Below are positions 2,467 through 20,643 of a DNA stretch of 20,643 nucleotides, one piece after another. Position 1 is the first letter of the stretch, and each line of letters begins with the position of its first letter. Source of the DNA: Spirochaetota bacterium. GTDB taxonomy: Bacteria > Spirochaetota > UBA4802 > UBA5550. The stretch covers positions 1-20,643 of the forward strand of contig JBNKTL010000063.1 of the NCBI GenBank assembly GCA_050298055.1, in the 5' to 3' direction. Under the pieces are notes generated by a model. The model saw only the letters and a program-made list of their open reading frames with translations. It had not been told where the DNA came from and searched no databases. A program made the position numbers and the translations under genes.

Positions 2467-2534
2467 AATTAATACTTGCAAAAATCCAAGAAGAAAAATG
2501 GAATACCCATTAATTTAATTCAGGCAGAACTGCA

Positions 2535-3422: not shown

Positions 3423-3469
3423 AGTTTTCTTATCCCCCTTTTTACACATCTTTTCAACGCCTAATTCTT

Positions 3470-4843
3470 TTATCGCCTGTTAAAGACAATGTAATCAATC
3501 AGGGGGACTTTTTTTATGAGGACAACTCCCGTGTAGAGGGACGAGAGAAGGGCCCCCAGCAGGTAACTGAGCCCCGGCAGTTTCACCCCCAGGGAGAGGA
3601 AGAGAATTGTCAGGAGCACGCTCCCCCCCAGGTAGATCACCGTTGAGACCACCGCCTCAACCCTGAATTCCAGGTAGAGCAGGTATATCTGTGTTGTCAG
3701 GGAAATCATATGAAAAAACACGGCGGTAAAAAGAACATTTACCACAAGGGTATCCACGCTGCCGTAACCCATAAAGGCGAGAAACTTTTCCGTGTTAAGA
3801 AGGAGCCCCACGGTCCAGACACCCTGAAAGAGGACCAGCTGTCCCAGGCCCCGCTTCAGGCTCCCGATCATCTCCCTTTTATTATAATCTATCCTTTCAA
3901 GATTGTCCGAGAGGATGTTCTTCATAAAGGTAAAGTACGCGGTGTGAAAAACCGGTTCGCTTATCACCAGGAAGTAAACCAGTCCCGGGATCATGGACAT
4001 GAACGCCAGGAAGACGGGAATGTCATAGACGATGAAGTACCTGTAGAGGGTCCCCTCAATCTTCTCGCCCACTGCTATCCAGTAGATGATCTTGTCCGCC
4101 CATATGGCCGCGTTGAAGAAAGTCCCCAGGGCAAAGAGGTAACTGAACTTCTTAAAGTATTTAAGCATATCACGGTTGATGCCCGGCTTCTTTACGGGAT
4201 AGGACTTGAGGGAGATGGTAATGAGAAGAACAACAATGAGAAACTGTCCCAGCCCGTAGCCCAGGACCGCCCCCGCGACACCATACTCTCCCCCGAAAAA
4301 GGCGACCCCTGAAACGGACCCCGCCACACCGGCGAGATAGGCAAAGAATATTTTGTTGTACTCTTTCAAAAGGCTCACATAGACCAGCATGACCCAGATG
4401 ATATTGGCGGTCACGAAGAGGAACCCCAGGGAACAGACGTAGAGGTTGGGATATTTTAACATGCTGAAATCATTGAACAGGAAAAAAAGAAGAGAGACGG
4501 CCGTTGAGACCAGGACAACAATTCCTATTGCGGTAAGGAGCGCGGTGGGAATGGACTCCTTCTCCTCAATGTAGAGCATATCGGCAATATACCGGGAAAA
4601 AACATAGTGCACTCCCCCGAAGAGGACCAGGGAAAAGGCGTAGACATAGACGATGGATACCGTAAAAAGCGCCGGGTTTTCCGATATGGCAACATGGGCA
4701 TATTTCTGGATGAAGTAGATACTGAGAACAGAGAGTATCCAGGGCCCCGCCACAATGACCGCGCCGAGAAAAAAAACCTTGAAGAGGGAGCTTACCGTCC
4801 CCTTGTGGAGTATCCTGTAGAGTTCAAATCCTATACCGGCCAT
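3470..4843 (-). CDS. pelG: Pel polysaccharide transporter PelG (MOP-superfamily membrane protein)
   Basis: Hallmark N-terminus MAGIGFEL, 'AGPW', 'SRYIADMLY', 'IWADK', 'YDIPVFLA', about 12 hydrophobic segments, downstream of pelF. Confidence 0.93.
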   Translation of the reverse strand: MAGIGFELYRILHKGTVSSLFKVFFLGAVIVAGPWILSVLSIYFIQKYAHVAISENPALFTVSIVYVYAFSLVLFGGVHYVFSRYIADMLYIEEKESIPTALLTAIGIVVLVSTAVSLLFFLFNDFSMLKYPNLYVCSLGFLFVTANIIWVMLVYVSLLKEYNKIFFAYLAGVAGSVSGVAFFGGEYGVAGAVLGYGLGQFLIVVLLITISLKSYPVKKPGINRDMLKYFKKFSYLFALGTFFNAAIWADKIIYWIAVGEKIEGTLYRYFIVYDIPVFLAFMSMIPGLVYFLVISEPVFHTAYFTFMKNILSDNLERIDYNKREMIGSLKRGLGQLVLFQGVWTVGLLLNTEKFLAFMGYGSVDTLVVNVLFTAVFFHMISLTTQIYLLYLEFRVEAVVSTVIYLGGSVLLTILFLSLGVKLPGLSYLLGALLSSLYTGVVLIKKVPLIDYIVFNRR

Positions 4844-4852
4844 ATTATTCCC

Positions 4853-6253
4853 TTATTCCGCCCCATGGATATATTTATTATAAAGATCCGAATAGGTCCT
4901 GATCAGGTCTTTCTTGTTATAGTATTTCAGGACCTTGTCGCGGTTCTTCCTCACAAGCTTCTCATGGTATTCCCTGTTCCGGGAGAGTTCGAGTATCCCC
5001 CGGGCAAGCTTTTCCGAGTCCTTGGGGTCTGCCAGGAGCGTCTCATCATAATCGAGCATCTCGGGGACATTCCCCACGCGGGTTGAGACCACCGGTATTC
5101 CCGCGGCATAGGCCTCAAGGATAACAAGGGGCTGCGCCTCCCTGATGCTGGAGAGTACCATGACATCAAGAAACGAGTAATACTCCCTGACGTCGGCCCT
5201 CCCGGTGAAGATAACGCGCTCCTCCAGCTTAAAGTTGGCTACCAGCTGCGAGCACTCCTCCATGTAGTTTTCATCCTCATCCTGGGGCCCGATGATATAG
5301 AACTTTACCCTCTCCATCTCTTCCCACACGATCCTGGCGGCAATGATGAAGTTCTTAACGTCCTTTATGGGGACAACCCTTCCCACAAAGCCAACGGAAA
5401 AGTCTTCCTTCTTCTCCTGTTTCAGGTCAAGGAACCTGTCAATGTCGATCCCGTTGGGAATGACCATGGTCTTTTCACGGGCCGCTCCCTGTGAAATCTG
5501 TATGTTCCTGTTGTGTTCAAAAAGCGATATTGTCAGGTCGGAGTAATCATATGTTATCCTGCTCAGGTCGTTAAATATATTTATCCAGAGGTCACGCTGG
5601 TAGCCCTTTACCCAGGTGGCCCGCTTGATGTCGATCTCTCTCTCCTTGTTGTAGAGCCCGTGTTCCGTGAGGATGACCGGTTTCTTACGGACGATCTTTG
5701 CCACGGCCGCGGAGAGCCCCGCGTACCCGGTTGAGATGGTATGATAGAGGTCCGCCTCCGGTATCTCCCACGTGAGGATTTTGAAGAGGTATTCATGGGA
5801 CGCTATCCAGGACCAGTAGTAGTCGGAAAAGGGGTAAAGGGGATTGTGGAGGTTCCCGTAGTGACCGGCCATCTTCCAGCTCTCCCTGTGCCCGATAAGT
5901 TTCTCATGGGAATACCTGTTCGCCTGCATCTGTTCGACAATCCACCGGAAGTTTTCGAAATCCGCCTTCATGAAGTTTTCATGTACCGGTTTTATCTTTT
6001 CAAAAAATTCCCGGTCAACGTTATTTTTTGTGTTATGCGATGGTCCGGTGAGAAAACGGTCAACAAGGCCGATAACATTGTCCGGGAACCTGTACTTGAC
6101 TTCGTTCTCCTCTCCCGCGGATATTGCGTAGAGAATAAAATCGAAATCGGAACACCCTGAAATAATATCCTGCACCCAGGCTGAGACGCCCCCTGTTATA
6201 TAGGGGTACGAACCCTCGGTAATAATGCATATCTTCTTCCGGGGACCTGCCAT
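4853..6253 (-). CDS. pelF: GT4 glycosyltransferase PelF
   Basis: 'EGSYPYITGGVSAW', 'HTISTGYAG', 'LTEHGLY..ER', 'GRVVPIKDVK', 'SIREAQPLVILEA'. ATG at 6253 preferred over TTG at 6268. Confidence 0.93.
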   Translation of the reverse strand: MAGPRKKICIITEGSYPYITGGVSAWVQDIISGCSDFDFILYAISAGEENEVKYRFPDNVIGLVDRFLTGPSHNTKNNVDREFFEKIKPVHENFMKADFENFRWIVEQMQANRYSHEKLIGHRESWKMAGHYGNLHNPLYPFSDYYWSWIASHEYLFKILTWEIPEADLYHTISTGYAGLSAAVAKIVRKKPVILTEHGLYNKEREIDIKRATWVKGYQRDLWINIFNDLSRITYDYSDLTISLFEHNRNIQISQGAAREKTMVIPNGIDIDRFLDLKQEKKEDFSVGFVGRVVPIKDVKNFIIAARIVWEEMERVKFYIIGPQDEDENYMEECSQLVANFKLEERVIFTGRADVREYYSFLDVMVLSSIREAQPLVILEAYAAGIPVVSTRVGNVPEMLDYDETLLADPKDSEKLARGILELSRNREYHEKLVRKNRDKVLKYYNKKDLIRTYSDLYNKYIHGAE

Positions 6254-6260
6254 TATCTTT

Positions 6261-7106
6261 TCACACAATCCACTGGTATACCATCATTTCTGTTGATTCA
6301 TCCATCCCCTCCAGCATCTCTCCGTGCCGGTCAAAGAGGTCCTTTATCTTTTCATACTCACCGGAATAGAAGTAGCACTCGGCGATCATCATCAGGGACT
6401 CCCTGTCGCTGCCATCCTCGGTAAAAAGATACCGGAAAATCCTCAGCGCCTTGTTATACTCTCCCAGCAGCATATAGACCTCACCGATGGGCCTCAGGAT
6501 ACGGGGATTGCCGCTGTTTAGCCTGTTCGCCTTTTCAAAATAGTCCAGCGACTCCTGCAGGTAGAAGTTCCTGATCAGGGCCTGTCCCTCCAGGAGCCTC
6601 ACAAACCTCAGGTAGAGTATTCCCAGGTTGTAGAGGAGCACCTCTTCCACACCCTTCCCATGGGCGAGCTTCTCCTTGAGATTCTGGATCTTCTGAATGT
6701 AGCTGTTCTCGATGGTATTCAGGCCCTCGGCGGCATAGAGGGCGATTTCCGGGTTGGGGTCTTTGATCATGTTCCGGAGTATTTTTACGGAATGGGGCGT
6801 CGGCCTGAGAGAAAGCTTCTGCTGGGAAAAGAGCCGGGTGACCTCGTCCAGGTCCTGTGCTTCGTCAACAAGGGGACGGAGTGATGTGGCCATCTCGATA
6901 TAGAATTCAATCCCGATAAGCCCCTCCGAAAATGCCTTCCTGAGCCCCCGCTGGGTCTTGGGCATATAGGTCTCCTTCTTCTCTGCTCTCCTGTAAAAAT
7001 CGAAGGGATCATCATGGGAGAAAAGGCTCTCCCCGGAAGCCTTATCATCTCCGGGGACCTCCTCACCTGTTCTGAACGCGCCGAAAATTTTTTCCCTGTA
7101 ACCCAT
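6261..7106 (-). CDS. pelE: PelE-like HEAT/TPR protein
   Basis: Lies between pelD and pelF. 'ILRNMIKDPNPEIALYAAEGLNTIE' HEAT-like motif followed by TPRs. No N-terminal TM helices are visible. Confidence 0.7.
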   Translation of the reverse strand: MGYREKIFGAFRTGEEVPGDDKASGESLFSHDDPFDFYRRAEKKETYMPKTQRGLRKAFSEGLIGIEFYIEMATSLRPLVDEAQDLDEVTRLFSQQKLSLRPTPHSVKILRNMIKDPNPEIALYAAEGLNTIENSYIQKIQNLKEKLAHGKGVEEVLLYNLGILYLRFVRLLEGQALIRNFYLQESLDYFEKANRLNSGNPRILRPIGEVYMLLGEYNKALRIFRYLFTEDGSDRESLMMIAECYFYSGEYEKIKDLFDRHGEMLEGMDESTEMMVYQWIV

Positions 7107-7111
7107 GGAAC

Positions 7112-8569
7112 CTATATCTTCTGCATCTCCAGCAGGTTCTCCGCAAGCATGATAAGATCATCCGCTGAATTGTGGTTTTCCCTGAGGCTGCTGTAGCCCA
7201 GGATTATCTCGGGAACGACAGCCTCTTCCTTAAGGGAATATTTGTTTGCCCCGTGCTTTTCCAGCAGGGAGAGACAGAACATGGCGGCGCCGTCATAGTC
7301 CATGCTGGGAAGAATTATCGCGAACTGGAAGGTCTCCTTGTACTGGAAGTTAATGGCGTGCCCCTGTGAGACCTTGACGACCATATCGGAAATCTCCCTA
7401 ATCAATGAGAGAACATCCTTATCCGAATACCTTTCAAGGAGTTCAGTTGCATTATTCAGCTCCACCAGGACAAGTGAAAGGGGCAGATTTGTATTGCGCG
7501 CGGTCTTAAACTCCTCGGAAAGAACAACAAACATCTCGTTGATTGACTGAAGCCGTGTAACCGGGTGGACCTCACCCTCCTTGGTAAGCTTCCCGAACCT
7601 GATGGCGTTCCCCACCATGGGGGCTGCAAGGTCGGATATCATGACAATGAGCTGCTCGGAATAGAGATTGTATTTCACAAAGGGCATCTCCTCGATATTG
7701 ATGACTCCCCATACCCTGTTCTCTATGGTAACCGGGACCGTGATGAGACTCTGCTTGTTGTCCAGCTCCTTCAGGTTGGCATACTTGTGGAGCATTTTAA
7801 CAGAGAAGAGCGCGTTGTTCCGGGCAACCCATCCGATAAGGTTGTCCTTGTCGGAAATTGTGTTTCCTTCGTTTTTCTCCGGGCCGCTCCAGCCGTGTGA
7901 GGAGAGCAGCCCCAGTTCATGCTGCTCCCTCCGGTATTCCCAGAGTGAGCATTTCCCTGCCCCGGAAAACTTGATCACGGCCTCCACTATATTCTCATAG
8001 ATGCTCTCCAGGTCCAGTGAGTTCAGGGTCACCAGGGTTGAATAAAGAGAGATAAGTGAATTCTGCTGCCCCAGTATCCTGTCCTGGTACTCTTCATTCA
8101 CAAGGACCACGGATTTCAGTTCGCTCTCCAGCCTGCTGTTCTCCTTTTCAAGGAGCTTTCTTTCAGACTTGAGCTTTGCCACATTCACACCCAGTGAATC
8201 GCGTATCTCACCAAGTACCATGGACACGATTATTCCCGTGAAGAGAAACTCCATTAATGCCCCGTACCCGATTCCGGAAAAAAAAGCGGTAAATGAACCG
8301 GCAGGAGAACCGGAACTCCCGGGTATAAGAGAAAAAAGCAAAACAATCATAAATCCTGAAATTGTGAGCAGGAGGGAGAAGATTCCCGAAATCTTCCCAT
8401 AATATGAAGCAAAGAATATGATAATAAAGAGGTAGGGATTATACCTGCTTCCCAGGAACCCCGTATCACCCGGATAATAAAAGAGATTAATCACAGCCAC
8501 AACCGCCACTGCGATAATTATCTCCAGGGGATGGACCCGTTTAAAAAATTCCGCTGTTTTTGCTACCAT
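7112..8569 (-). CDS. pelD: PelD-like protein (N-terminal TMs, coiled coil, GAF, degenerate GGDEF)
   Basis: About 4 hydrophobic segments with 'YNPY...ASYYG', GAF ('LIGWVA...VPV...VWGVINIEEMPF'), GGDEF-like tail ('HPVTRL', 'PLSLVLVEL', 'FAIILP'). First gene of the pelDEFG run. Confidence 0.8.
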   Translation of the reverse strand: MVAKTAEFFKRVHPLEIIIAVAVVAVINLFYYPGDTGFLGSRYNPYLFIIIFFASYYGKISGIFSLLLTISGFMIVLLFSLIPGSSGSPAGSFTAFFSGIGYGALMEFLFTGIIVSMVLGEIRDSLGVNVAKLKSERKLLEKENSRLESELKSVVLVNEEYQDRILGQQNSLISLYSTLVTLNSLDLESIYENIVEAVIKFSGAGKCSLWEYRREQHELGLLSSHGWSGPEKNEGNTISDKDNLIGWVARNNALFSVKMLHKYANLKELDNKQSLITVPVTIENRVWGVINIEEMPFVKYNLYSEQLIVMISDLAAPMVGNAIRFGKLTKEGEVHPVTRLQSINEMFVVLSEEFKTARNTNLPLSLVLVELNNATELLERYSDKDVLSLIREISDMVVKVSQGHAINFQYKETFQFAIILPSMDYDGAAMFCLSLLEKHGANKYSLKEEAVVPEIILGYSSLRENHNSADDLIMLAENLLEMQKI

Positions 8570-8880
8570 TACTCTGAGCCAAACCTGTCTGAACCGCTTA
8601 AATAGCTTTTTTTCTAAATTTTTTCTTTATTAATAATGATTAAAATATTATATTTAACGCATTATACGCATAACACTATTTTATATATCGGAATTATCTC
8701 TTTATATATAAAATCTGTTATTACTTAGTTATATGAATAAAATTATGTACTTTCAAAAAATATCAACAATATCCAGGGACGGGGGATATACCAGGTATCT
8801 TTTTTTGTTAAAGATGATCATTCTTATGCATAGCTGAGCAATAACTCAAATCTCTTATTTATACTATATGAGGATTATTT
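8570..8880. promoter_or_regulatory. AT-rich divergent promoter region between pelD and the export/deacetylase operon
   Basis: Very AT-rich 311-bp gap between head-to-head genes. GAGGA RBS precedes 8881. Individual promoter boxes were not resolved. Confidence 0.55.
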
Positions 8881-10011
8881 ATGAAAGGAAAAAATACCAT
8901 CCTAGTTATTTCAGCCCTCTTCATTACAATAATAATACCGGGGTGCAAACAGATAATCCCCACCGGGAGCGGTACGGACGTATTGCTCTACAAGGCCCGT
9001 AAGAACATCACTATGGCTGAATCCATTGAAGACAGGAAAAGGAGAGAATTTCTCCTGGAGACCGCACTGGACCAGCTCAAACAGGCGGAATCCGGTGAAA
9101 AACAGAGAAAGGAAAAAGCGAAATTTGACGGGATCAATTCAGGGTACGCCCTCTACTATTACGCCATCGGTGATTACAGCCGCGCCGAAGAGTATTCCGC
9201 CCGCGCCCTGAAGGAGAACAGCAGAGACCCCTATAACAGGGTCATGGATTACAGGATAAAACTCAAGACCAAGGGGAAGAAATACGCCCGTGAAGCCGTT
9301 AAGGAACTGTCACAGATTGTGGCGAAAAACCCGGATATGCCCATGGCCGCCATAACCCTGGGCGACGCGTACTACTACCTGGTTGAATATAAGCAGGCGC
9401 GGGAATACTACAGGAGGGTGCTCCTCCTTGGCAGGGAGTTCCAGGTGTCCGCGGCGGACAGGATCGAGATCCTCAATGAAATCGAGAGGATCAAACTGAA
9501 CCCGAAAAAATACCAGAGCCTCATCTTTTCCCGGGGAGTCAAACGGGGAGAAATTGCCAGTCTCCTCTACAGCGTTTTCGGGATACAGAGAATGTTCAGG
9601 ATGAAAAAGGAGCTTCCCGGGGCATTCACGGACCTTACAAGCGTAACCGCTCTTGTTTACGCCGACTCAATAAAAGGACTTCGAAAAAACGGTTTCTTCT
9701 CATATATAACGGGAAAGAACTTTGAACCGCTTAAGGTCGTCAGCCGGGGAGAAATGGCAAAGATCGTTGAAGACTATATTGTCCTCTCAACGGGAAATAT
9801 CGATTTCAGGACCCGGTATGGGAAAAGTTCCGCCTCGCCCATAAAAGACGTGAAAAGTTCCCATGTTTATTACAACGCCATAAGAATCGCGCTGCAGTAC
9901 GGTATCATGAACCTCACCCTGAGCGGATTGATGCAGCCTGAAGATCCCATGGAAGGACTGAACACTCTGCTCATCATCAAAAGGATGACAGGAAGAAAAT
10001 CTTACCGGTAA
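8881..10011 (+). CDS. putative lipoprotein with TPR repeats and C-terminal SLH-like (S-layer homology) repeats
   Basis: Signal MKGKNTILVISALFITIIIPG-C (lipobox-like). TPRs such as 'LGDAYYYLVEYKQAREYYRRVL'. SLH-like 'VKRGEIASLL', 'FEPLKVVSRGEMAKIV', 'DVKSSHVYYNAI..A...GIM'. Confidence 0.7.
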   Translation: MKGKNTILVISALFITIIIPGCKQIIPTGSGTDVLLYKARKNITMAESIEDRKRREFLLETALDQLKQAESGEKQRKEKAKFDGINSGYALYYYAIGDYSRAEEYSARALKENSRDPYNRVMDYRIKLKTKGKKYAREAVKELSQIVAKNPDMPMAAITLGDAYYYLVEYKQAREYYRRVLLLGREFQVSAADRIEILNEIERIKLNPKKYQSLIFSRGVKRGEIASLLYSVFGIQRMFRMKKELPGAFTDLTSVTALVYADSIKGLRKNGFFSYITGKNFEPLKVVSRGEMAKIVEDYIVLSTGNIDFRTRYGKSSASPIKDVKSSHVYYNAIRIALQYGIMNLTLSGLMQPEDPMEGLNTLLIIKRMTGRKSYR

Positions 10012-10029
10012 AAGGATACAGGAGCATAT

Positions 10030-13000
10030 ATGAAACAGTCAGGAAAAAAAATCGTTACGGCAATTATAACATTCGCGTTTATACTGCCCTTTTATTTCTC
10101 TTCGGGGCAGGAGACAGGGAAGAGAAAAACCGAAAAAAAGACGGGTCCCGCGTCACAGGGGAAAAAAATTCCCTACAAAAACTATATCTGGATAGAGGGT
10201 GAAGACGCCGTAAGCACGAACTTCGCAAAAGAAAAGACATATAACTTTTTCTGCAGCAACAGGTACGCGCTCCAGCTCTCCAAAGACGCGGACCCGAAGT
10301 CAGACAAGGGTTACTTTGCCAGCTATATTTTTCACGTCCCCCGGTCAAAATCCTACGACTTCTGGATGGGATGTTCACCTCCCGGTTCAACCAGGACAGA
10401 CCGGCCGGGCTATGCCTCGCCCATTGAATGGAAAATCGACGACGGAAAGTTCAAGACCGCTTCATCTGAAAACACCTTCGTCAAGGAGTACTATGCTCCC
10501 GGAGGGTTCTACTGGGTAAAGGTATCAACCGGGAAACTGGGAACGGGGAAGCATACCCTCACCTTCAGGGTAAAACAGAAGAGAACAAGCGGCTGGGACT
10601 ACTACTTCTATATCGACGCCATACTTTTTCTTCCCACATACTCCGGGGAGCTGATTTCCCTCATGAAATTTCCCGGGACCGCGCCGGGAAACTTCACCAC
10701 CGGGGGAAAGGGGATCAGGTTCAGGAAGGCCGAAGAGTACAGGAAACTGATCAAGAGGGACATTAATTACAGGGAAAATATCTTTAACCTTCTGCAGGTC
10801 TACGGATGGCTTTACGAAAACAACAAGGCGGTGGACCAGTGCCGGGAATACCTCAAGGGGAATCCCCGGGACATCGAGATAAGAATACTCCTTGCAAGCA
10901 ACCTTGCCTGGGGAGGAAGACTGGATGAAGCCATAAAGGAATATAAAACAATCGTATCAATCGATAAGAAGAACATAACCGCCCGGAAGCTCATGGCTGT
11001 TCTCGCGGGATGGAACAACAGGTACGATGAAGCAATAAAGAACTATGAGGAGATTATAAGAATCGATCCCCTTAATGTTGACGCGTACATCTCACTTGCG
11101 ACCCAGCTCTCCTGGAAGGGTGAGGTCAACAGGGCAATAGCGGTCTTTCAGAAGGCGGAAACAATTGCCCCGGACAATATCGAAGTGCTCTATGCCCTGG
11201 GTGATAACTACAACTGGGGCGGAAAAACATATGACGCCATACGGCAGTTTAAAAAGATCATCTCTCTTGATGAAAAGGAGATAAATGCCTATAAGAAACT
11301 GGCGCAGATCTATCTGGACGCGGGACAGGCAAAAAACGCCAATGACATAATGGAAGAGGCCGTACAGATCAGGAGGATATACCCGGAACTCTCCGCTTTT
11401 TCACTGGACTTAAAGGGAGAACAGGAGAAACAGAAAAAGGCCGCCATCAATGAATATCTGAGAGCCCTGGAGAAGGACCCTGAAGACCTGGAGGCCAGGA
11501 AGAACCTCATTGATAACTACCGCTGGAACAGGATCTACACGAAAGCCATTGAGGAATTCACCAATCTCCTCAACATAAAAATACTGAAAAACATCGATTC
11601 AACGGGAGGAAAAATCGGCACACTTGAAATAGAGACCCTCAAACTCAGTCTCATGAAACCGCTGGTAGAATCACTGAACAGGGAGATAAAATCACTTAAC
11701 AACAGGTATGCTGATATTCCGGAAAACATAAAAAAAGGGAAAGCCCTGTCGGGCGATTTCACCACAGCTGTAATTGATTCTGATTACAGAAAGATACGCA
11801 GTATTGCGGCCAGGACCGACCTGGTCGAAAAGACCCTCACCGCGTACAGTGATGTCCTGAGCTACTATAACAGGGACATCCAGGGGTACCTGACGCAGAA
11901 AAACGCGTTGAAATGGGAGATTGACAGGGAACGGCTTCTGGAACAGGCCAGAAACTCGGAAAAGAACATGAAAGGTGATTTTCGGCCAAAAAAGGTAATC
12001 GGAATGCTTGAGCTTTTTTACGGAAGCAGTTCGGGGGCCGCTTCATCCCTGGGAACAGTCTACGGGAAAGATCCTATGAGGGCCTTCCCCCAGTATCCCC
12101 TCTCCCTGGTCTATTCGGAAAAATACGGTGAAGCAGAACTTCTCATTAACAAAATGATACAGAGCAATAAACTTAAAAAGACAACCCGGGACAGGCTCAG
12201 GACCATAGTGACACTTCTCGCAAACCTGAGGAAAGAGAAGGGAGGGACCCCTCCCCCGTCAGGGGACAGAAACAAAACAGCACTGGGAACGGCCCGGCTC
12301 TCCATCGAAACCGCGAAAAGACTGGATGAGCTTTCAGAGGAACAGGGAGAAAAATTGAAATCGGGGAAAAAATCGATCAGGTACCTCTATGAAAAAGGGG
12401 TCCTTGAGCAGGAGAATGATAATGTTCCGGTCTATAAGGAGATCGGAGAGTTCTATCTCAATACAAACAGGATATTCCCTGCCCTGGATTACTATGATAA
12501 TATTCTGCAGGTTCAGCCCCTGAATGTTGACATAAACTTTAAGATAGGAAACCTCAGGGGGGTATCGGGATACTGGAAAACAGCCATGGGCAACTTCGAG
12601 ATCTGCATCAACAACCAGGTCGACAACGCCCTGGCAAGGAAAGAGCACTATGAGCTGCAGAAAGAGTATTCGCCCTCCCTGGAGAGTATAACCAGGTACT
12701 ACAGCGAATCTGCCGTTACCCGGATATCCGAGAACCTGAACGGGGTCTATCCCCTCACCGACTGGTTTACCCTCAAGGGGGGATACGGGCTTGTGCGGAT
12801 CGATGAACAGGGGGGCCAGTCACAGTCAGGGCAGACCTACCCGGGAATAAAAACCGGGGCCGTCATGCACCACCTGGGAAAAGTCGAAACTGAGTTCAGG
12901 ATTATCCCCCTCTCAACAACTGTCTTTCTCAGCGGAACAGGTAACTACTATACGGGTGAAGTTGATTTTGAGCAGTATGACACCTACGATTCAAAGATCA

Positions 13001-15042
13001 GCTACTCCACATTTAACTACGGTGGGGGGATAAAGCTCTCTCCCCTCTTTAAAATAATGTCACTGCGGGCCGAGTACCAGCGTGAAGATATATCAGACCT
13101 GACGCAATCGTTGAGGCTCACAAGACGGGACGAAATAACCTCAAATACCATAAGCGCATCAATGGATATATCCCCCGGTGAACTGGACTTTCCCCTGAGT
13201 GACAGGTTTTTCCTCTTTGACAGCATCAGGTACAGGATGCTCTCCGATTCAAACACACGGGTATCCAGCTACAACGAACTGACCTACAGGCTGCTCCGGT
13301 TCACCGAATCCGACATGAAACTCGATCTCTCGGGGGTCTACTCCTATGAATCAAGCGGATTCACCGAATATGACACGAGCCTTGTAACGGATATGCCCTA
13401 CGTCCCTTACTGGGTCCCCGAGAGCCTCGCCACATACGGGGGAGGGATCCGATGGCTCCATACAATTGAAAATATCATGAAAGGAAAATTCCAGTATATC
13501 CTCGCATTCCAGTATACCCTTGACACCGAGGGAAATACAAATATGAATCCCGGCATAAAACTGAATTACAGAGGCGATCATGTATCGGCAAGTCTCTCGT
13601 ATCTCTATTCATACTCAAAAATTGATCCGACCACGGCAAACCCGGACCCGGACCCCTTCATCTCACATGATATCACCTTCGGCATAAAGGGAAAGTTCTT
13701 TACGGTCTATACCCCAACGGGAAGGGGTGAAGAACCTATCAACATTATCAGCGCAAACCCGAAGTTTATAACAGCCGATAACGACGGGAAAGACGACTTC
13801 ACCACCATAACGATGACCGCCTTCGATGAAACAGGTATCAACAGCTGGCGCCTGGATATCACAGATACAAAGGGGAAAACCGTAAACACAATTGCCCGCA
13901 AAGGCGCGCCCCCGGCAACACTGAAGTGGGACGGCACAGACAAGACCAATATCCTCCTCCCCGCAGGAGACTATCTCTGCAGGCTGACAATAGTAAACAG
14001 CGCCGGTAAAAAGGACATTTCAAAGAGCGAGAGGATATTCCTCTCCCGGAAGAAAAGAGCGGTCACCCTTGAAAAATCGTACACGGAATTCTCACCCAAC
14101 AAAGACGGCATCAGGGACACCATCAGCTTTGGAATAAACGCCTCCGACAAGGACGCCGTTGAAAGCTGGAAACTGAGTTTAAAAGACGCAAAGAGAAAAC
14201 AGGGAAGGCCCCTCAGGGAGATCACGGGCTTTGAATTCCTGCCCTATGATGTGCAGTGGGACGGGAAAAACAGCAGGGGTGAATTCCCCGGGGACGGGAC
14301 GTACACTGCCTCAATTAGCATCAGGTACAAGGACAGGAAATCAATACAGTCACCGGCAGTTGAAGTGGTAATCACCACGGGAATAACCGTGGGGATAAAG
14401 GCAAACAGGCTTTCCTTTACACCGGAGAAAAACAGCATTGTTATCACGCCGCGATCTTCCAAAGCTGAGGTGGAATCGTGGAAACTGATGATCCATTCAA
14501 CGGACAAACGGCTCGTTAAGCTCATGAGCGGCAGCGGGAAAATACCCGGTAAAATAGGATGGAACGGCACCGATGACAAAAACAGGGCCATCGGTTACAA
14601 CATGCCCCTCCTTATCTCCATGGAAGTTGCAGACAGGGCGGGAAACAGGGGCAAATCCGACAGCCGGGAAGTATGGGCCGATTTTCTGATAACCCGGACC
14701 GGGGGTAAAACAAAGATCATCCTCTTTGACCAGGAAATGCTGCACAAAACAAAGAGCGCTTCGTTCAAGGCAGAAGCGGAAAAAATTATCCGGCAGCTTG
14801 TAACAGCAATTAAAAAGCAGGGACGAATAAGAGAACTGCATATTATATCACATACAAACTCCGATGGTTCCGAAAAGAACAACCTTGCCCTGTCTCAAAA
14901 AAGGGCGGTAAACCTCGGGGAGAGGCTGAAAAGCCAATTTGCAGGTGTTTCAATTAAAACCACCGGGATGGGCGAATCGGCCCCCTATAAAAAGGGAGAT
15001 TCCAACAAGTGGGATATACGCTATGAAATCGAAATCAACTAA
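10030..15042 (+). CDS. large secreted TPR + putative beta-barrel + FlgD-Ig-like repeats + OmpA-like protein; candidate PelB/PgaA-like export porin
   Basis: Signal peptide, N-terminal beta-rich domain, many TPRs ('LASNLAWGGRLDEAIKEY'), Tyr/Gly/Ser-rich alternating strands at about aa 880-1225, repeated 'SW.L.I...WDG' modules with 'FSPNKDGIRD', and a C-terminal 'HTNSDGSEKNNLALSQKRA...GMGESAP' OmpA-like motif. Confidence 0.7.
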   Translation: MKQSGKKIVTAIITFAFILPFYFSSGQETGKRKTEKKTGPASQGKKIPYKNYIWIEGEDAVSTNFAKEKTYNFFCSNRYALQLSKDADPKSDKGYFASYIFHVPRSKSYDFWMGCSPPGSTRTDRPGYASPIEWKIDDGKFKTASSENTFVKEYYAPGGFYWVKVSTGKLGTGKHTLTFRVKQKRTSGWDYYFYIDAILFLPTYSGELISLMKFPGTAPGNFTTGGKGIRFRKAEEYRKLIKRDINYRENIFNLLQVYGWLYENNKAVDQCREYLKGNPRDIEIRILLASNLAWGGRLDEAIKEYKTIVSIDKKNITARKLMAVLAGWNNRYDEAIKNYEEIIRIDPLNVDAYISLATQLSWKGEVNRAIAVFQKAETIAPDNIEVLYALGDNYNWGGKTYDAIRQFKKIISLDEKEINAYKKLAQIYLDAGQAKNANDIMEEAVQIRRIYPELSAFSLDLKGEQEKQKKAAINEYLRALEKDPEDLEARKNLIDNYRWNRIYTKAIEEFTNLLNIKILKNIDSTGGKIGTLEIETLKLSLMKPLVESLNREIKSLNNRYADIPENIKKGKALSGDFTTAVIDSDYRKIRSIAARTDLVEKTLTAYSDVLSYYNRDIQGYLTQKNALKWEIDRERLLEQARNSEKNMKGDFRPKKVIGMLELFYGSSSGAASSLGTVYGKDPMRAFPQYPLSLVYSEKYGEAELLINKMIQSNKLKKTTRDRLRTIVTLLANLRKEKGGTPPPSGDRNKTALGTARLSIETAKRLDELSEEQGEKLKSGKKSIRYLYEKGVLEQENDNVPVYKEIGEFYLNTNRIFPALDYYDNILQVQPLNVDINFKIGNLRGVSGYWKTAMGNFEICINNQVDNALARKEHYELQKEYSPSLESITRYYSESAVTRISENLNGVYPLTDWFTLKGGYGLVRIDEQGGQSQSGQTYPGIKTGAVMHHLGKVETEFRIIPLSTTVFLSGTGNYYTGEVDFEQYDTYDSKISYSTFNYGGGIKLSPLFKIMSLRAEYQREDISDLTQSLRLTRRDEITSNTISASMDISPGELDFPLSDRFFLFDSIRYRMLSDSNTRVSSYNELTYRLLRFTESDMKLDLSGVYSYESSGFTEYDTSLVTDMPYVPYWVPESLATYGGGIRWLHTIENIMKGKFQYILAFQYTLDTEGNTNMNPGIKLNYRGDHVSASLSYLYSYSKIDPTTANPDPDPFISHDITFGIKGKFFTVYTPTGRGEEPINIISANPKFITADNDGKDDFTTITMTAFDETGINSWRLDITDTKGKTVNTIARKGAPPATLKWDGTDKTNILLPAGDYLCRLTIVNSAGKKDISKSERIFLSRKKRAVTLEKSYTEFSPNKDGIRDTISFGINASDKDAVESWKLSLKDAKRKQGRPLREITGFEFLPYDVQWDGKNSRGEFPGDGTYTASISIRYKDRKSIQSPAVEVVITTGITVGIKANRLSFTPEKNSIVITPRSSKAEVESWKLMIHSTDKRLVKLMSGSGKIPGKIGWNGTDDKNRAIGYNMPLLISMEVADRAGNRGKSDSREVWADFLITRTGGKTKIILFDQEMLHKTKSASFKAEAEKIIRQLVTAIKKQGRIRELHIISHTNSDGSEKNNLALSQKRAVNLGERLKSQFAGVSIKTTGMGESAPYKKGDSNKWDIRYEIEIN

Positions 15043-17587
15043 AAAAGAGACCTGCGGGAAAACAGCATTAGTTCTTTTTGCGTTTTTCCTCTTTCAGCCG
15101 GCGCTGTTCAGCGCGCCGCAATACGGGAAAACAATTCTCGGGATATACCGGTCATCGGACGGCTATAAAACCGCTGACAACCCCATTGCATGGTATTTTA
15201 AGAACACAATTGATAAAACAGGCTTAAAAATAACATATCACGATTTTGACAGCGGGATACCGGACAGAGACTCCCTGGGAGATGTCCGCGCCATAATAAC
15301 CTGGCATAACAGCGGTGTGGTTCAAAGCAAAGAGAAGGCAAAAGAATATATAAAATTCCTGGATGACGCGGTGACATCCGGGATAAAACTTGTTATCATA
15401 AATTCCTTCGGGGCCTACGGATACAGAGAAGACGGAAAGGAGAAGTGGGACCTCAACGCTTATTACGCCCCCCTTTTCCGGAAAATGGGATTCCGGTTCG
15501 CGGGATACTGGACTAATGACCCCGGTAAACTTAAGATCATCAAGCTGGACAAATCCGTGGCCCAGTTTAAAGGGAAACAGGATGTGAGGAGAGCGCGGCA
15601 CTACCAGCAGATCATCCCCGTGAGAAAAGATGTGAGGTCTTACCTGGTGGTAAAAAGGACCGACGGGGCCAAAGGTCTCGGGGACGGGCTCTCATCCCTG
15701 ATACTCACATCGAAGAACGGCGGTTTTGCCCTTGAACAGTATGTTATCAGCAAAAACACCTTTATGCTCAATCCCGAAAAGTTTCTCCGGAACTCGCTCT
15801 TTTACGATGACGGGTACCAGGACGTGGGAGTCATCATGGGAAAAACAAAAAAAAGGGCTTTTATCGAGAACAACCTGAAATACGCGTTCAGGTACGCGAA
15901 GATTAAATACAGGAATGTCGATGTTGATGCGCTGAAGGGGATGGTGGGTGAAGACCTCAAACCCTTTGAAGCCATTGTCATTGTTGCCGACAACCTGGAC
16001 AATATCCCCCTCAGGATCATTAAGGACTATACTGAAAACGGCGGGAATGTCATATTTCTTAAGTTCGCTGATATGAGTAACGACTATAAGAAGTTCCTGG
16101 GCATAAAATCCTATGGCGGCAGTATCGATTACTTCACCGGGGGTTTCTCCCTGGATAAGGATTTTTTCTTCAACGCTTACCCGGTGACCTGTAAGGCAAT
16201 GGACCTCAATGTAAGAAGGGCTGACCTCAGGGACGCGAAGGTTATCGGGACCCTATTAGACAGGAGGAAAAAGAACTCCTACCCCGTCCTCTGGGAACGG
16301 AGAGCGGGAAAGGGGAAGGTCCTCTACTGGAACACCGATATGCTCACCAGCAGCAAGAGTTTCCGCGGGACCGAAGTCCAGAGTATCCACTATATCTCCT
16401 CAAACTTTGTCACCGGGCTTGCCAATATTGCCATGATGATGGTAGATGATTTTCCCGCCCCCTGGTGGAACATCTACTACAAACAGTACAGGATAGATTA
16501 CTATACTAAAAAAATGAACAGCGCAAACACAGCAGAGGAGAGAGAAAAATACAGCGCGTTTATCAAAAACCTGAAAAGATACAAAAAAGTCTCCGATACG
16601 AATTTTATTAAAGATGTCTGGGTCAGGGACCTGCTGGCCCTGCAGAAGAAGCTGGGCTTTAAATATACCACCTACCTTATCTTTAACTATAATAAGGACA
16701 CGGGATATAAAAACAGCAGCTATAACTACGAGATAAAGGACTTCTACCTGGCCAGGGGAGGGATGACCGTAAAGATGGGAGAACTTGCCCTGGAAAAGGG
16801 CTGGGAACTGGGGTTCCACGGATTTAACCATATGTCTCTCACCCTGACCCGGCCAAAAGACTACGACTCAACCCCCTGGCCGGACAAAGAGTCAATGCTC
16901 AAGGCCCTGAACAGGTCGAGAAGGGAGTGGGAGAAGATCTATACCCCGGTCATGCTCCCCTTTTCCTATGTTGCTCCCCACAATATTATCGATAAAACAG
17001 GGACAGAGGCCCTGGGTGAAGCATTTCCCTCAATCCAGGTCCTCTCAACACTCTACGTGAGCTCCCAGGGTGAGAGGGAGCAGGAATTTGAGTTTACAGA
17101 GGACAGGAGGTTCCTGCAGATCCCCCGGATGTCATCGGGATACGCAATGCAAGATACCGACAGCTACCTCCTCTTCGACGTACTCCACAACTTCGGGGTG
17201 ATCAGCCACTTTATCCACCCCGACGACGTTTTTGACGAGCACCGTTCATTCGGATACCACGGCTGGGACTGGATGAAGAAACAGTTCAGCAACCAGTTTA
17301 TGACAATTGAAAAGTACTACCCCTGGGTCCGCTGGATGACCGTAAAGGACGCCTACTCCGAATTTCTCTTTTATAACAATACCGGGATGAACGTCATAAG
17401 AGACGGGGATAAAATAACCGTTTTGACATCGGACGGCTCCAGCCGTGACTTCTTCTTTAGAATGAGCCTCGCCCGGGGAAGAAAACCGGGAAAGATAACA
17501 GGTTGTAAACTGGTCAGTTTCAACAGGAAGAGCGGGGACGCTGTTTTCAAGACCAGCAGCTACCGGTGTGAGATCGAGGTGCGGTAA
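15023..17587 (+). CDS. PelA-type/DUF2194 polysaccharide deacetylase (CE4-like), secreted
   Basis: Start moved to ATG 15023 (signal-like MKSKSTKK...ALVLFAFFLFQPALFS-A). Motifs 'MVDDFPAP', 'ELGFHGFNH', 'YVAPHN', 'PRMSSGY', 'ISHFIHPDD'. Pel context. Confidence 0.75.
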   Translation: MKSKSTKKETCGKTALVLFAFFLFQPALFSAPQYGKTILGIYRSSDGYKTADNPIAWYFKNTIDKTGLKITYHDFDSGIPDRDSLGDVRAIITWHNSGVVQSKEKAKEYIKFLDDAVTSGIKLVIINSFGAYGYREDGKEKWDLNAYYAPLFRKMGFRFAGYWTNDPGKLKIIKLDKSVAQFKGKQDVRRARHYQQIIPVRKDVRSYLVVKRTDGAKGLGDGLSSLILTSKNGGFALEQYVISKNTFMLNPEKFLRNSLFYDDGYQDVGVIMGKTKKRAFIENNLKYAFRYAKIKYRNVDVDALKGMVGEDLKPFEAIVIVADNLDNIPLRIIKDYTENGGNVIFLKFADMSNDYKKFLGIKSYGGSIDYFTGGFSLDKDFFFNAYPVTCKAMDLNVRRADLRDAKVIGTLLDRRKKNSYPVLWERRAGKGKVLYWNTDMLTSSKSFRGTEVQSIHYISSNFVTGLANIAMMMVDDFPAPWWNIYYKQYRIDYYTKKMNSANTAEEREKYSAFIKNLKRYKKVSDTNFIKDVWVRDLLALQKKLGFKYTTYLIFNYNKDTGYKNSSYNYEIKDFYLARGGMTVKMGELALEKGWELGFHGFNHMSLTLTRPKDYDSTPWPDKESMLKALNRSRREWEKIYTPVMLPFSYVAPHNIIDKTGTEALGEAFPSIQVLSTLYVSSQGEREQEFEFTEDRRFLQIPRMSSGYAMQDTDSYLLFDVLHNFGVISHFIHPDDVFDEHRSFGYHGWDWMKKQFSNQFMTIEKYYPWVRWMTVKDAYSEFLFYNNTGMNVIRDGDKITVLTSDGSSRDFFFRMSLARGRKPGKITGCKLVSFNRKSGDAVFKTSSYRCEIEVR

Positions 17588-17704: not shown

Positions 17705-17719
17705 TTTGAGGTGATAACT

Positions 17720-17947
17720 ATGCAGATGTCAGCGGCAGAATTTAAAGCAAAGTGTTTAAAGATAATGGACCGGGTCAATATCTATCATGAAGAAGTCGTT
17801 ATTACCAAACATGGGAAACCTGTTGCTAAATTAATACCTTATTCATTAAAACCGGGAAAATCATTATTCGGGTACATGAAAGATTCTGTTCATATTAATG
17901 ATGATATCATAAAACCGATTGATGAAAACTGGGAAGCCGAGAAATAA
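17720..17947 (+). CDS. Phd/YefM-family antitoxin
   Basis: 'SAAEFKAKCLKIMDRV....EEVVITKHGKPVAKLIP'. ATG 17720 follows a GAGGTG RBS (the ORF track uses GTG 17711). Confidence 0.9.
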   Translation: MQMSAAEFKAKCLKIMDRVNIYHEEVVITKHGKPVAKLIPYSLKPGKSLFGYMKDSVHINDDIIKPIDENWEAEK

Positions 17948-17950
17948 AAA

Positions 17951-18373
17951 ATGATCGTACTGGATACACATATATTGATCTGGTTAATCAACGGAGATGA
18001 AAGAATCAGAAAATCGGGCTTTTTGACTCACATTAATAAAGCAATTAAAGATAGTTCAATTGTCATTCCCGCTATTTGCATGTGGGAAATTGCAATGCTT
18101 GCTTCAAAAAAACGCATCTCATTGTCTGAAAACACGTTAGATTGGATAAAGAATGTAACTTCAGCTCCAGGTGTGAGTATTCACCCGCTTTCTCCCGAAA
18201 TTGCCTATGAGAGTACAATATTGCCCGGGGATTTTCATGGTGATCCTGCTGACAGGATGATCATTGCCACTGCGAGAATTCTTAACGCGACATTATTTAC
18301 ATTTGATAAATATATCATCAAATATGGTGAAAATGGGTTCGTGAAGATTAAAAAAACCAGACAAAACAGGTAG
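17951..18373 (+). CDS. vapC: VapC / PIN-domain toxin
   Basis: 'IVLDTHILIW', 'ICMWEIAML', 'FHGDPADRMIIATA', 'TFD' contain the conserved acidic PIN residues. Starts 3 nt after the antitoxin. Confidence 0.9.
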   Translation: MIVLDTHILIWLINGDERIRKSGFLTHINKAIKDSSIVIPAICMWEIAMLASKKRISLSENTLDWIKNVTSAPGVSIHPLSPEIAYESTILPGDFHGDPADRMIIATARILNATLFTFDKYIIKYGENGFVKIKKTRQNR

Positions 18374-18564: not shown

Positions 18565-19662
18565 TTACAGGGGGCTTTTAACCTTTACCAACCCGGATTT
18601 TGCTACCTTTGTATAAATAGTTGTAGTACTGATATTTTTGTGCCCCAGGAGGTTCTGGATATAGCGGATCGAAATCCCGTTTTCCATAAGGTGAGTGGCA
18701 AAGCAGTGCCGCAAATCATGGGGTGTCAGATGCAGAGAGAGCCCGGCCTTCTTCACGGCGTTTTCAAGGACCTTCTGGACTGTCCTTCCTGATATATGCT
18801 TTTGCGACCCTGGTTCCGAGTAGTGGACCGGTGTGAAGATAAAATCCTTCGCACTTTTTCCCAGCATACAGAACCTGAGACCCTCCTCCAGGGACCGGGA
18901 AAAGATGGTGATCCTGTCTTTACGCCCTTTCCCTCCGCGTACATGTATTGTAAGGCTTTCAAGATCAAGATCGGATATCCTGAGACTAACAAGCTCTGAA
19001 AGCCGGAGTCCTGACGCATAGAGGAGACCGATCATGGTCCTGTGCCGGGTGTTGCTTATGGAGTCCAGGATTTTCATGATCTGGTTCCGCGTTGCCACCG
19101 ACGGAAGATGACGGGGGCTTTTCATCCCTTCCAGAAAGGAGAGGTCCAGGGTACGGCGAAGGACCCGGGAAAAATAGAGTTTCAGGGATGAACGGCATAT
19201 TCGGACAAGTGAAGGTGAGAGCCCCCGGTCATCAATGAGTTCCAGAAAAAACTTCCGGGCATCGGCCGCGGTAATGCAGTCAATGGGTTTGCCGGTATTG
19301 GAGAGACACCATTTATTGGCCCGGCCTAATGCTCCCATATATGCCTTTATGGTCCGGGGAGAATAGCGTTTAAGTACCATGACTTCCCTGAATTCCCCTG
19401 AACGGGGAGGAGACCCGGCCCCCTGTATTGGTTGTGGACCAGCTTGAGGCCCTTTCTGAAAATGCCCCTCCAGCTTTGTAAACACATAACGAGGAACACC
19501 CAGATCCTGTAAAAAGTATTTTTTTATAGCCCTGAAATCATTCACGGTGATTGTACTGGAGTATTCTTTGAAAAAATCCTCAATATCTTTGTTTGATATA
19601 TACTTCGGATCACCTTTATAGCCGTATTCCTTCAGAAGCATATCCAGCATCCGGTTTGACAT
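18565..19662 (-). CDS. integron-integrase-like tyrosine recombinase (SAM-like N-domain + catalytic domain), lacking the IntI-specific insertion
   Basis: Catalytic R220 (LLYASGLR), K245 (GGKGRKDR), H315/R318 (HDLRH), H341 (LLGH), Y350. 'YSPRTIKAY' N-domain and IntI-like C-terminus 'VKSPL'. GGGAGG RBS upstream of 19662. Divergent from the cassette array. Confidence 0.88.
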   Translation of the reverse strand: MSNRMLDMLLKEYGYKGDPKYISNKDIEDFFKEYSSTITVNDFRAIKKYFLQDLGVPRYVFTKLEGHFQKGPQAGPQPIQGAGSPPRSGEFREVMVLKRYSPRTIKAYMGALGRANKWCLSNTGKPIDCITAADARKFFLELIDDRGLSPSLVRICRSSLKLYFSRVLRRTLDLSFLEGMKSPRHLPSVATRNQIMKILDSISNTRHRTMIGLLYASGLRLSELVSLRISDLDLESLTIHVRGGKGRKDRITIFSRSLEEGLRFCMLGKSAKDFIFTPVHYSEPGSQKHISGRTVQKVLENAVKKAGLSLHLTPHDLRHCFATHLMENGISIRYIQNLLGHKNISTTTIYTKVAKSGLVKVKSPL

Positions 19663-19811
19663 AAATTTTACCTCCCTATCTGTAATAACAACTGCATAAT
19701 AAAATGCATCTACATGTTAATACGAACGGGAGTCGCATATCATAAAATTTTTTTTGTTAAAATGTATTTTTTTCTTCACATATCATGAGGTTTATAGGAG
19801 TATATCGCAAT

Positions 19812-19831
19812 TCAGATAAGTATAGTTTATC
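19812..19831 (+). other. putative attI-like recombination site (crossover G/TT at 19825/19826)
   Basis: Identity with the third cassette begins exactly at G19825 (GTTTATC) and no attC body lies upstream. The site is 163 nt from the integrase start and reads AGATAA-GTATA-GTTTATCT, similar to a simple site. Confidence 0.55.
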
Positions 19832-20194
19832 TCAATAAATTCAATCTATTATTCTGATCAAGAACTATTATACTCCGCATAAACAAGAAAAAGAAATAAA
19901 GAGTTATATAAAAATTTTGGTTTTTAGTGTTAGACAATGCCTTATCAATTGATATAGTCATTATCAGCTCATTGAAGTTGATTAAAAAAGAGTTATAATA
20001 TTTTTTCCACGCATTTGAATTTACTGCGATAAACTAAGCTTAACCGCTTGCGCTCCTCGGCGCAAAAGGCCGCGCCTGCGGTGCTCGGCCTGCGGCACAT
20101 TGCCCATTGTTGCTTTCTAAAAACTTGTTGCAAAATGAACTGGTTCCTTTTAAGTACATTATGGAATCATGGCAACGTCGGCTAAGCTTTGACG
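19826..20194 (+). mobile_element. gene-less integron-like cassette A (369 bp)
   Basis: Begins (G)TTTATC and its attC starts with the complementary GATAAAC. About 200 bp of AT-rich body, no ORF of 60 aa or more. Confidence 0.75.
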
Positions 20195-20200
20195 TTATGT
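20028..20200 (+). repeat. attC-like site 1 (173 nt)
   Basis: GATAAAC-T-AAGCTTAACCG ... CGGCTAAGCTT-TGAC-GTTATGT. AAC/GTT ends, terminal inverted arms, homologous to site 2. Confidence 0.8.
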
Positions 20201-20567
20201 GTCATAAATTCAACCAATTATACTAAGCAAGAATAATTATAGTCCGCATGAACAAGAAAAAGAAATAAAGAGTTATAATATTTTAGTTTTGAGTGTTAAA
20301 TAATGCTTTAGCAACTAATGTGGTCATTATCCGCTAATTGAAGTTGATTATAAAAAGAGTTATAAGAGTTATTATAATTTTTTGCACGCATTTGAATTTA
20401 CGACACATAACTAAGCTTAGCCGCTCCGCTCCTCGGTCGAAGACTCCCTGCGGTGCTCGGCCTTCGGCATATTGCCCATTGTTGCTTTCTAAAATTATTG
20501 TTGCAAAATAAATCCAGCTCTTTTAAAAACATTTAAGAATCCTGGCAACATCGGCTAAGCTTTAACG
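20195..20567 (+). mobile_element. gene-less integron-like cassette B (373 bp), diverged paralogue of A
   Basis: Begins (G)TTATGT and its attC starts with the complementary ACATAAC. The body aligns with cassette A along its length. Confidence 0.75.
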
Positions 20568-20573
20568 TTTATC
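20405..20573 (+). repeat. attC-like site 2 (169 nt)
   Basis: ACATAAC-T-AAGCTTAGCCG ... CGGCTAAGCTT-TAAC-GTTTATC, with perfect 11-bp inverted arms. Confidence 0.8.
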
Positions 20574-20643
20574 TCAATAAATTCAATCTATTATTCTGAT
20601 CAAGAACTATTATACTCCGCATAAACAAGAAAAAGAAATAAAG
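20568..20643 (+). mobile_element. third cassette, partial; identical to the start of cassette A
   Basis: 20567-20643 equals 19825-19901 over all 77 nt. Confidence 0.75.

Follow-up and report, generated by a model that had tools for sequence, protein, structure and literature searches.

A probable integron-like cassette platform in Spirochaetota headed by a tyrosine recombinase without the I2 insertion

The stretch of DNA analysed here (the window; 20,643 nt) is the whole of contig C63 of a Spirochaetota genome, G000, a 4.7-Mb assembly of 98% completeness, and the nearest named homologues of its proteins belong to Spirochaetota, Leptospirales and Leptospiraceae. Its left end carries a transposase fragment (164-646), followed by a polysaccharide-synthesis-like block (1519-17587) with an epimerase, a glycosyltransferase-like ORF recognized by eye and a DUF2194 protein, which is unrelated to the cassette array at the other end. 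That end holds a 365-aa tyrosine recombinase gene on the reverse strand (18565-19662; Pfam PF00589 and PF13495), an attI-like GTT site from which the gene diverges, and cassettes ending in AAC…GTT hairpins. This is the integron geometry that a sequence-only reading of the window had described, and it holds, with the recombinase facing away from the GTT site and the AAC…GTT-bounded cassettes lying behind. A Phd/YefM antitoxin and PIN toxin pair (17711-18373) sits just downstream of the recombinase and outside the array; no cassette ends were found on that side, and the toxin-antitoxin genes there run the opposite way.

The catalytic residues of the recombinase are intact, as that reading had stated, with R220, K245, H315, R318, H341 and Y350 invariant and H319 nearly so across 74 aligned sequences, and the protein does end in the IntI-like tail KSPL. 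Integron integrases carry a specific insertion of ~35 aa, the I2 domain. Exactly 23 residues separate KGRKDR from FIF in the window protein (18844-18912, reverse strand), the count originally given, where IntI proteins are ~30 residues longer in alignments. A phmmer match to VchIntIA (2a3v) breaks at query positions 262/287 and chain positions 177/239, corresponding to 37 residues fewer, and alignment with IntI1, IntI2 and IntI3 leaves a 30-residue gap plus ~6 more, a shortening of ~36 residues where I2 lies. The TIGR02249 score is 193 bits, below the cut-off of 265, and an insertion-region profile that we built from 18 canonical IntIs, partly from the loci under comparison, and ran against 134 sequences placed 26/26 canonical sequences at 84-123 bits and all others at ≤2.7, with no match in the window protein. 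These comparisons agree on the proposed absence of the IntI insertion, and the protein does not score as a normal IntI. It also falls short of the XerC and XerD families (178 and 155 bits; cut-offs 335 and 330), and the Xer-like proteins of G000 itself fall elsewhere in the tree. The AlphaFold model (pLDDT 85) has VchIntIA 2a3v as its top Foldseek match and predicts an extra N-terminal four-helix domain (residues 1-68; 19459-19662, reverse strand) followed by a flexible linker. This helical domain is kept among close relatives of the window recombinase; its language-model neighbours include phage-integrase SAM-like domains, which we take as a lead only, and it has no profile match to the N-terminal domains of canonical IntIs or of the co-oriented clade described below. 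Its derivation as a duplicate of the core-binding domain was considered and is not supported.

The attI-like site (19806-19835, forward strand) comprises a left box, TTCAGATAAG, a 4-nt spacer and a crossover-type G/TT at 19825-19827. Its GTT, at 19825, is 163 nt from the recombinase start codon, and in close relatives a CAGAYA..AGTT pattern recurs at 98-163 nt from the start codon, so that the sequence pattern is that expected of an attI site with a GTT insertion point beside the integrase. Between the start codon and this site lies an R-box-like motif, GTTAATACGAAC (19716-19727, forward strand), a candidate accessory or autoregulatory binding site, whose ACGAA/TTCGT core occurs within the first 170 nt upstream in 11/13 close loci. 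A second attI-side copy, matching window 19681-19801 at 84% and without a recombinase, is present on a 572-nt contig of the same genome (C157:304-423), and another variant, joined to a relative of cassette 1, was seen in sequencing run X4.

Cassette 1 (19825-20193, 369 nt) and its relative cassette 2 (20194-20566, 373 nt, recognized by end pairing and alignment) lie on the forward strand, are ORF-less and are ~80% alike (305/383 columns), while the 77 nt at the start of cassette 3 (20567-20643, forward strand) are identical to the start of cassette 1 and run to the contig end, which falls inside a collapsed repeat. In each window cassette the 20 nt after GTT pair with the 20 nt before its own AAC (shuffle control 0.0 here), and in cassette 1 A11 stands opposite C-11 within the 20 complementary nucleotides. 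The attC-like sites, for which the bottom strand is the presumed substrate, are site 1 (20024-20204, reverse strand; AAC 20032-20034, GTT 20194-20196) and site 2 (20401-20577, reverse strand; AAC 20409-20411, GTT 20567-20569), the latter called from its bottom-strand fold and the site model; both have an AAC-to-GTT length of 161-165 nt. Compared with shuffles, the bottom-strand folds reach z -3.1 for site 1 and z -1.8, weak alone, for site 2. Two features count against an integron-like reading, namely the near-equal folding of the two strands of linear site 1 (top -32.0, bottom -33.4) and a mismatch at position 8 of the cassette 1 end pairing. The same type of site bounds coding cassettes on three other contigs of G000 (C15, C107 and C5). 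A sigma-70-like match in cassette 1 (19972-19999, forward strand; 10/12 matches) faces the downstream cassettes and is a candidate promoter only, as the scan was at chance level with 4 sites found and 4.2 expected. Several AAGAGTTATA repeats within 19825-20566 are similar both to the attI core and to a -10 box. Recurring ORF-less cassettes, often repeated within arrays, were seen at window 19825-20566 and at two other loci (L122 and L206).

In an assembly of run X1, possibly the source sample, the recombinase contig has a depth of 12, the cassette 1 piece 49 and the cassette 2 piece 76. Cassette depth at several times that of the flank fits a longer array collapsed by the assembler, depth not being equal to copy number. 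No clean excision joint was found in contigs assembled from the sequencing runs.

Among 60 related genomes surveyed, 13 encode a close full-length homologue (E below 1e-77). An attI-like GTT and a first cassette with self-complementary ends are present in all 10 loci, the window included, that have at least 670 nt upstream (seven by the detector, one by a separate site analysis and two by eye); four others reach a contig edge within 243 nt. Cargo varies among these relatives, including a methyltransferase, AbiTii, GNAT, flavodoxin and YoaP, and G010, a single-contig genome, has at least seven cassettes with unrelated cargo. In a second clade of 345-380 aa, the array lies downstream of the stop codon, in the same orientation as the recombinase (co-oriented). 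A model of the insertion-less type of site finds 42 sites in G011 and, among those listed, most extend over ~100 kb behind the recombinase gene. Downstream arrays also accompany homologues in another family of the phylum (several sites in 4/7 loci, any in five) and a homologue on a Rufibacter plasmid has a similar downstream array. Not every family member heads an array, which counts against the integron-like reading: no such sites were found in 4/4 searched loci of short homologues ahead of IS91-type transposases, no arrays were found at G039 or at the one 376-aa protein searched, and two 376-aa family members head none.

The association was also counted over 61 genomes, many of them drafts, with kin that are not independent and many sites belonging to the training set of the model. 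At least three sites occur in 33/44 genomes with an insertion-less recombinase versus 2/17 without; with any site as the measure the contrast is 36/44 versus 8/17, and these eight genomes with sites, like the 8/44 without, count against the association. Together with the layout at all close loci with enough flank, the count of three or more sites bears out the link between homologues and arrays that had been proposed. Across 92 cassettes, the longest ORF follows the array direction in 67, is reversed in six and is absent in 19.

Canonical attC sites measure 57-141 bp and have a 7-8 bp R box and an extrahelical G in the L box. Our comparison covered 92 distinct sites at 29 insertion-less loci and 89 sites at 16 canonical loci, all automatic calls with an end pairing score of at least 7, some of the kept calls being misplaced and kin again not independent. 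Excluded were siteless loci (including class 1-3 plasmid loci), L212, three loci with IS91-type recombinases beside canonical-looking sites (L197, L029 and L047), and calls that looked like chance (L188, L194 upstream, L199 downstream and L208 upstream). In canonical cassettes, end pairing extends to position 8 and is at background beyond it, whereas insertion-less ends pair to ~19 except at position 11, where an end C stands opposite a start A in 85/92 sites, a feature that is not imposed by the detector. On the bottom strand this is a G·T wobble and on the top strand a C·A mismatch; the top-strand wobble was found in 0/92 sites. A C/A majority at position 11 characterizes 25/29 insertion-less loci and 0/16 canonical ones. 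Pairing at positions 12-19 is confined to the ends of the same cassette (61-91% between own ends versus 24-46% between neighbouring cassettes), while position 8, a fixed C:G, and position 11 are kept between neighbouring cassettes and are therefore present in linear sites, 30/31 of which have the T·G and whose inner stem shows compensatory changes. Since pairing joins the start of a cassette to the end of that same cassette rather than to the end of a neighbouring one, the crossover can be placed at G/TT.

The inner stem differs as well, with an offset of +2 to +4 in 89/92 insertion-less sites versus -1 to +1 in 83/89 canonical sites. The spacer on the cleaved arm is 2-4 nt longer, the inner stem has 9 bp (with an extra base in some related sites), the loop is CG-A-CG / CG-NNN-CG, and a CGACG-type motif follows the inner stem on the cleaved arm in 76/92 sites versus 9/89 canonical ones. 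Insertion-less sites thus depart from canonical attC geometry, although they are likewise imperfect AAC…GTT hairpins with a favoured bottom strand; that strand folds better in 78/92 insertion-less and 71/89 canonical sites, and in 84/92 circular forms. The ~19-bp outer stem, position-11 wobble and shifted inner stem uphold the suggestion of a different site code. Two RNA models, both self-built and partly from the loci compared, separate the two types of site. The canonical-site covariance model finds a held-out site on contig C43 of G000, nothing in the window and a single match (E 0.8) over seven insertion-less loci, while the insertion-less model built without G000 scores window sites 2 and 1 at 64 and 61 bits and finds none in 11 canonical loci. 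The prediction that standard detectors would miss the system is in line with these results in so far as our own proxies for the IntI insertion and for canonical attC both miss it. Counting against a clean separation, the canonical array at L199 (G111) mixes ordinary sites with ~200-nt sites; in the latter, end pairing reaches 14-20 bp, at four called sites, but the position-11 mark is absent.

Canonical IntI is present in 34/301 genomes of a sample of the phylum, and such loci served as controls. G000 itself has a canonical intI on contig C43 (963-2192; locus L168) that scores above the TIGR02249 cut-off, has an in-frame TGA inside the insertion and is accompanied by canonical sites in its array; two more canonical-type sites lie on contig C41 near 23650-24380. 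G056 has both kinds of recombinase. No canonical IntI was found in G010, G011, G024 or G027, yet the single-contig genomes G010 and G011 hold 12 and 42 insertion-less sites. IS91-type recombinase genes lie among canonical-looking attC sites at L029 (downstream), L197 and L047, as if inserted into canonical arrays. In quick trees with SH-aLRT support only, canonical IntIs form one clade (100) and the clade of the window recombinase (93-97) falls outside it, along with the Bacteroidota, IS91-linked and co-oriented groups; support for joining canonical IntIs to the window's clade is only 87, and the base of the tree is weakly resolved. Being outside the IntI clade and without I2, the window recombinase heads a system that would work like an integron but fails the defining test for IntI. 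The co-oriented insertion-less clade (L122/L123, L089 in G011 and others) has a HARP-like N-terminal domain, below the Pfam cut-off. By hhalign (98%) this domain corresponds to the extension at the N terminus of canonical spirochaete IntIs, and many of these IntIs are co-oriented too.

Canonical integrons (IntI1, IntI2, IntI3, VchIntIA and sedentary chromosomal ones) share with the window the divergent layout, AAC…GTT site, G/TT crossover, co-oriented cassettes and C-terminal tail, but differ in possessing I2 and in having an outer stem of 8 bp rather than ~19. Insertion-less recombinases have been met before near attC sites; Cury et al. (2016) report 21 and, in the text available, conclude that they are not IntI, and Smyshlyaev et al. 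(2021) describe the insertion as incompletely conserved in an integron-like subgroup. The accessible part of the IntegronFinder 2 paper gives one complete integron in Bacteroidetes proper, and that of a preprint on archaeal integrons gives the insertion as present in all archaeal IntIs. The closest published layout is rAID-1 (Ross et al., bioRxiv 10.1101/471110), described in 226/423 Bacteroidales genomes as an XerD-family recombinase with co-oriented genes and integron-reminiscent repeats, and defined in the portion consulted by a recombinase >44% identical to the B. fragilis reference, at least two co-directional low-GC downstream genes and immunity cargo, with neither attI/attC anatomy nor a mechanism described in that portion. 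As described there, the genes of rAID-1 are found downstream of their recombinase and mostly serve immunity, whereas the window array is upstream and divergent, with ORF-less cassettes. A Parabacteroides locus that by layout is an apparent rAID-1 representative has an insertion-less, co-oriented recombinase; used as a stand-in for the B. fragilis reference, this protein is 34% identical to the window recombinase and falls in another clade, and its sites are ~45 nt long with an ATT core and no match to the insertion-less site model. The novelty implied by the sequence-only reading therefore stands in part: an Xer-family recombinase heading integron-like repeats has been published from one distant clade, while the literature search turned up neither the divergent form of spirochaetes nor its site anatomy or strand mark. 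It also returned no paper on I2-less integrons in Spirochaetota, a weak absence, as it missed rAID-1 too.

The reverse-orientation integrons of Treponema (PMC3607928, PMC6557892) belong to the same phylum and have ORF-less cassettes, and the sister clade shares their co-oriented layout and a related N-terminal domain. The co-oriented canonical IntIs in our sample, which fit the Treponema description as far as the available text of these papers goes, have the insertion and canonical sites, unlike the window. The Treponema ORF-less cassettes are described as promoter cassettes. A precedent for an I2-less recombinase acting on a folded single strand that mimics double-stranded DNA is given by XerC/D with CTX phage, an IMEX (PMC4792948, PMC7790495, in the sections available). 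The phage uses host Xer at dif and is without an enzyme of its own, an attI or an array. The IS91-linked recombinases of ~280 aa belong to the same insertion-less family as the window protein but are without the extra N-terminal domain and are followed by a transposase.

Judged from its sequence, the window array is conserved and built for cassette exchange with its own site code. The locus is probably an integron-like platform for cassettes that is operated by an I2-less tyrosine recombinase, a reading based on the 10/10 close loci, the arrays in G010 and G011 without canonical IntI, and the strand-specific site rule. In integrons, the direction of genes away from attI follows from bottom-strand recombination, according to the part of the source available (PMC5027507). 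Because the attI-like site and the cassette sites share only GTT, a second homologous exchange would be unlikely, and we infer a single exchange on the folded bottom strand. The folded bottom strand of a site would undergo one exchange at AA/C with double-stranded attI, after which the junction would be resolved by replication, as in integrons and by analogy with XerC and CTX phage DNA. The long outer stem might make a circular cassette resemble a double-stranded Xer-type binding arm, and because this duplex-like arm would be complete only in the circular cassette, integration would be favoured. The wobble and asymmetric loops may set the choice of strand in place of the extrahelical bases recognized by I2, and the ORF-less cassettes beside attI could be amplified spacer or promoter cassettes. 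Against this reading we count the report, from the available part of the source, that I2 deletion kills IntI1 and that I2 is held to block a lethal second exchange (PMC7790495).

The same platform could run with a helper in place of I2, which could be a XerC/D subunit of the host, some other protein or the recombinase's own extra domain at the N terminus. The conserved helical domain of close relatives, and the sub-threshold HARP-like domain found at its place in the co-oriented clade, would suit this idea, which is nonetheless unlikely in that the two clades share the site rule despite unrelated N-terminal domains, and canonical IntIs of the co-oriented kind have I2 in addition to the HARP-like extension. 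Improbable to a greater degree is that the sites act as double-stranded DNA in an ordinary two-exchange route, with the hairpins serving RNA structure or cassette birth. The catalytic domain does resemble Xer and archaeal XerA, users of double-stranded DNA, but GTT alone is common to attI and the sites beside the crossover, too little for a second exchange, and the fixed mismatch is a wobble on one, non-coding, strand only and joins bases hundreds of nucleotides apart. We would rate marginally lower still the idea that a canonical IntI serves the arrays in trans, or left them behind, with the neighbouring recombinase incidental. It draws on the canonical intI of C43 and on the coexistence of both kinds in G056, whereas the spacing between recombinase and attI-like site is fixed in either orientation, the sites sort with recombinase type, the C43 gene is broken by the in-frame stop inside its insertion, and none of G010, G011, G024 and G027 has such a gene. 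We give hardly any credence to the window repeats being a loop made in assembly, or members of a repeat family that does not recombine. Although the last 77 nt of the contig are identical to part of cassette 1 and the units are 80% alike, an independent read assembly puts both units at several times flank depth, the same site bounds the coding cassettes elsewhere in G000 and occurs in 44/61 related genomes, and no Rfam family matched the window or two related loci.

On the preferred reading, an integron-like platform without I2, the system would be a second route of cassette swapping that is probably missed by standard integron finders. More tentatively, and with the balance of our opinion leaning against it, the insertion-less family may be a living pre-I2 integron, with canonical IntIs a single branch in which I2 and a new site code were acquired later, and the two codes orthogonal and able to run together in one cell. 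If so, it would supply the intermediates said to be lacking in integrase evolution, none being known according to the part available of a 2020 paper (PMC7790495). Detection tools use I2 to define integron integrases, and I2 is also credited with having allowed single-strand recombination; an intact I2-less enzyme that has an attI of its own and sites with a strict, strand-specific code would make the latter claim testable by standard assays. Large cassette arrays, such as that of ~100 kb in G011, have likely gone uncounted in Spirochaetota and Bacteroidota, where integrons are reported to be limited or rare, and a recombinase with an orthogonal structure code could serve as a tool.

In G010, G011 and G024, some insertion-less sites lie at a great distance from the recombinase, either isolated or in small CALIN-like clusters. 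In G027, a prophage-like region that starts with an integrase gene (L108:3750-4900) splits the first site just after AAC, and the sites resume ~11 kb on. Phage records gave only distant matches. Plasmids of Acinetobacter (many) and of Klebsiella and Aeromonas (some) encode a shorter relative of the Bacteroidota-type recombinase, ~52% identical over 70% of the query and named TnpF in one record.
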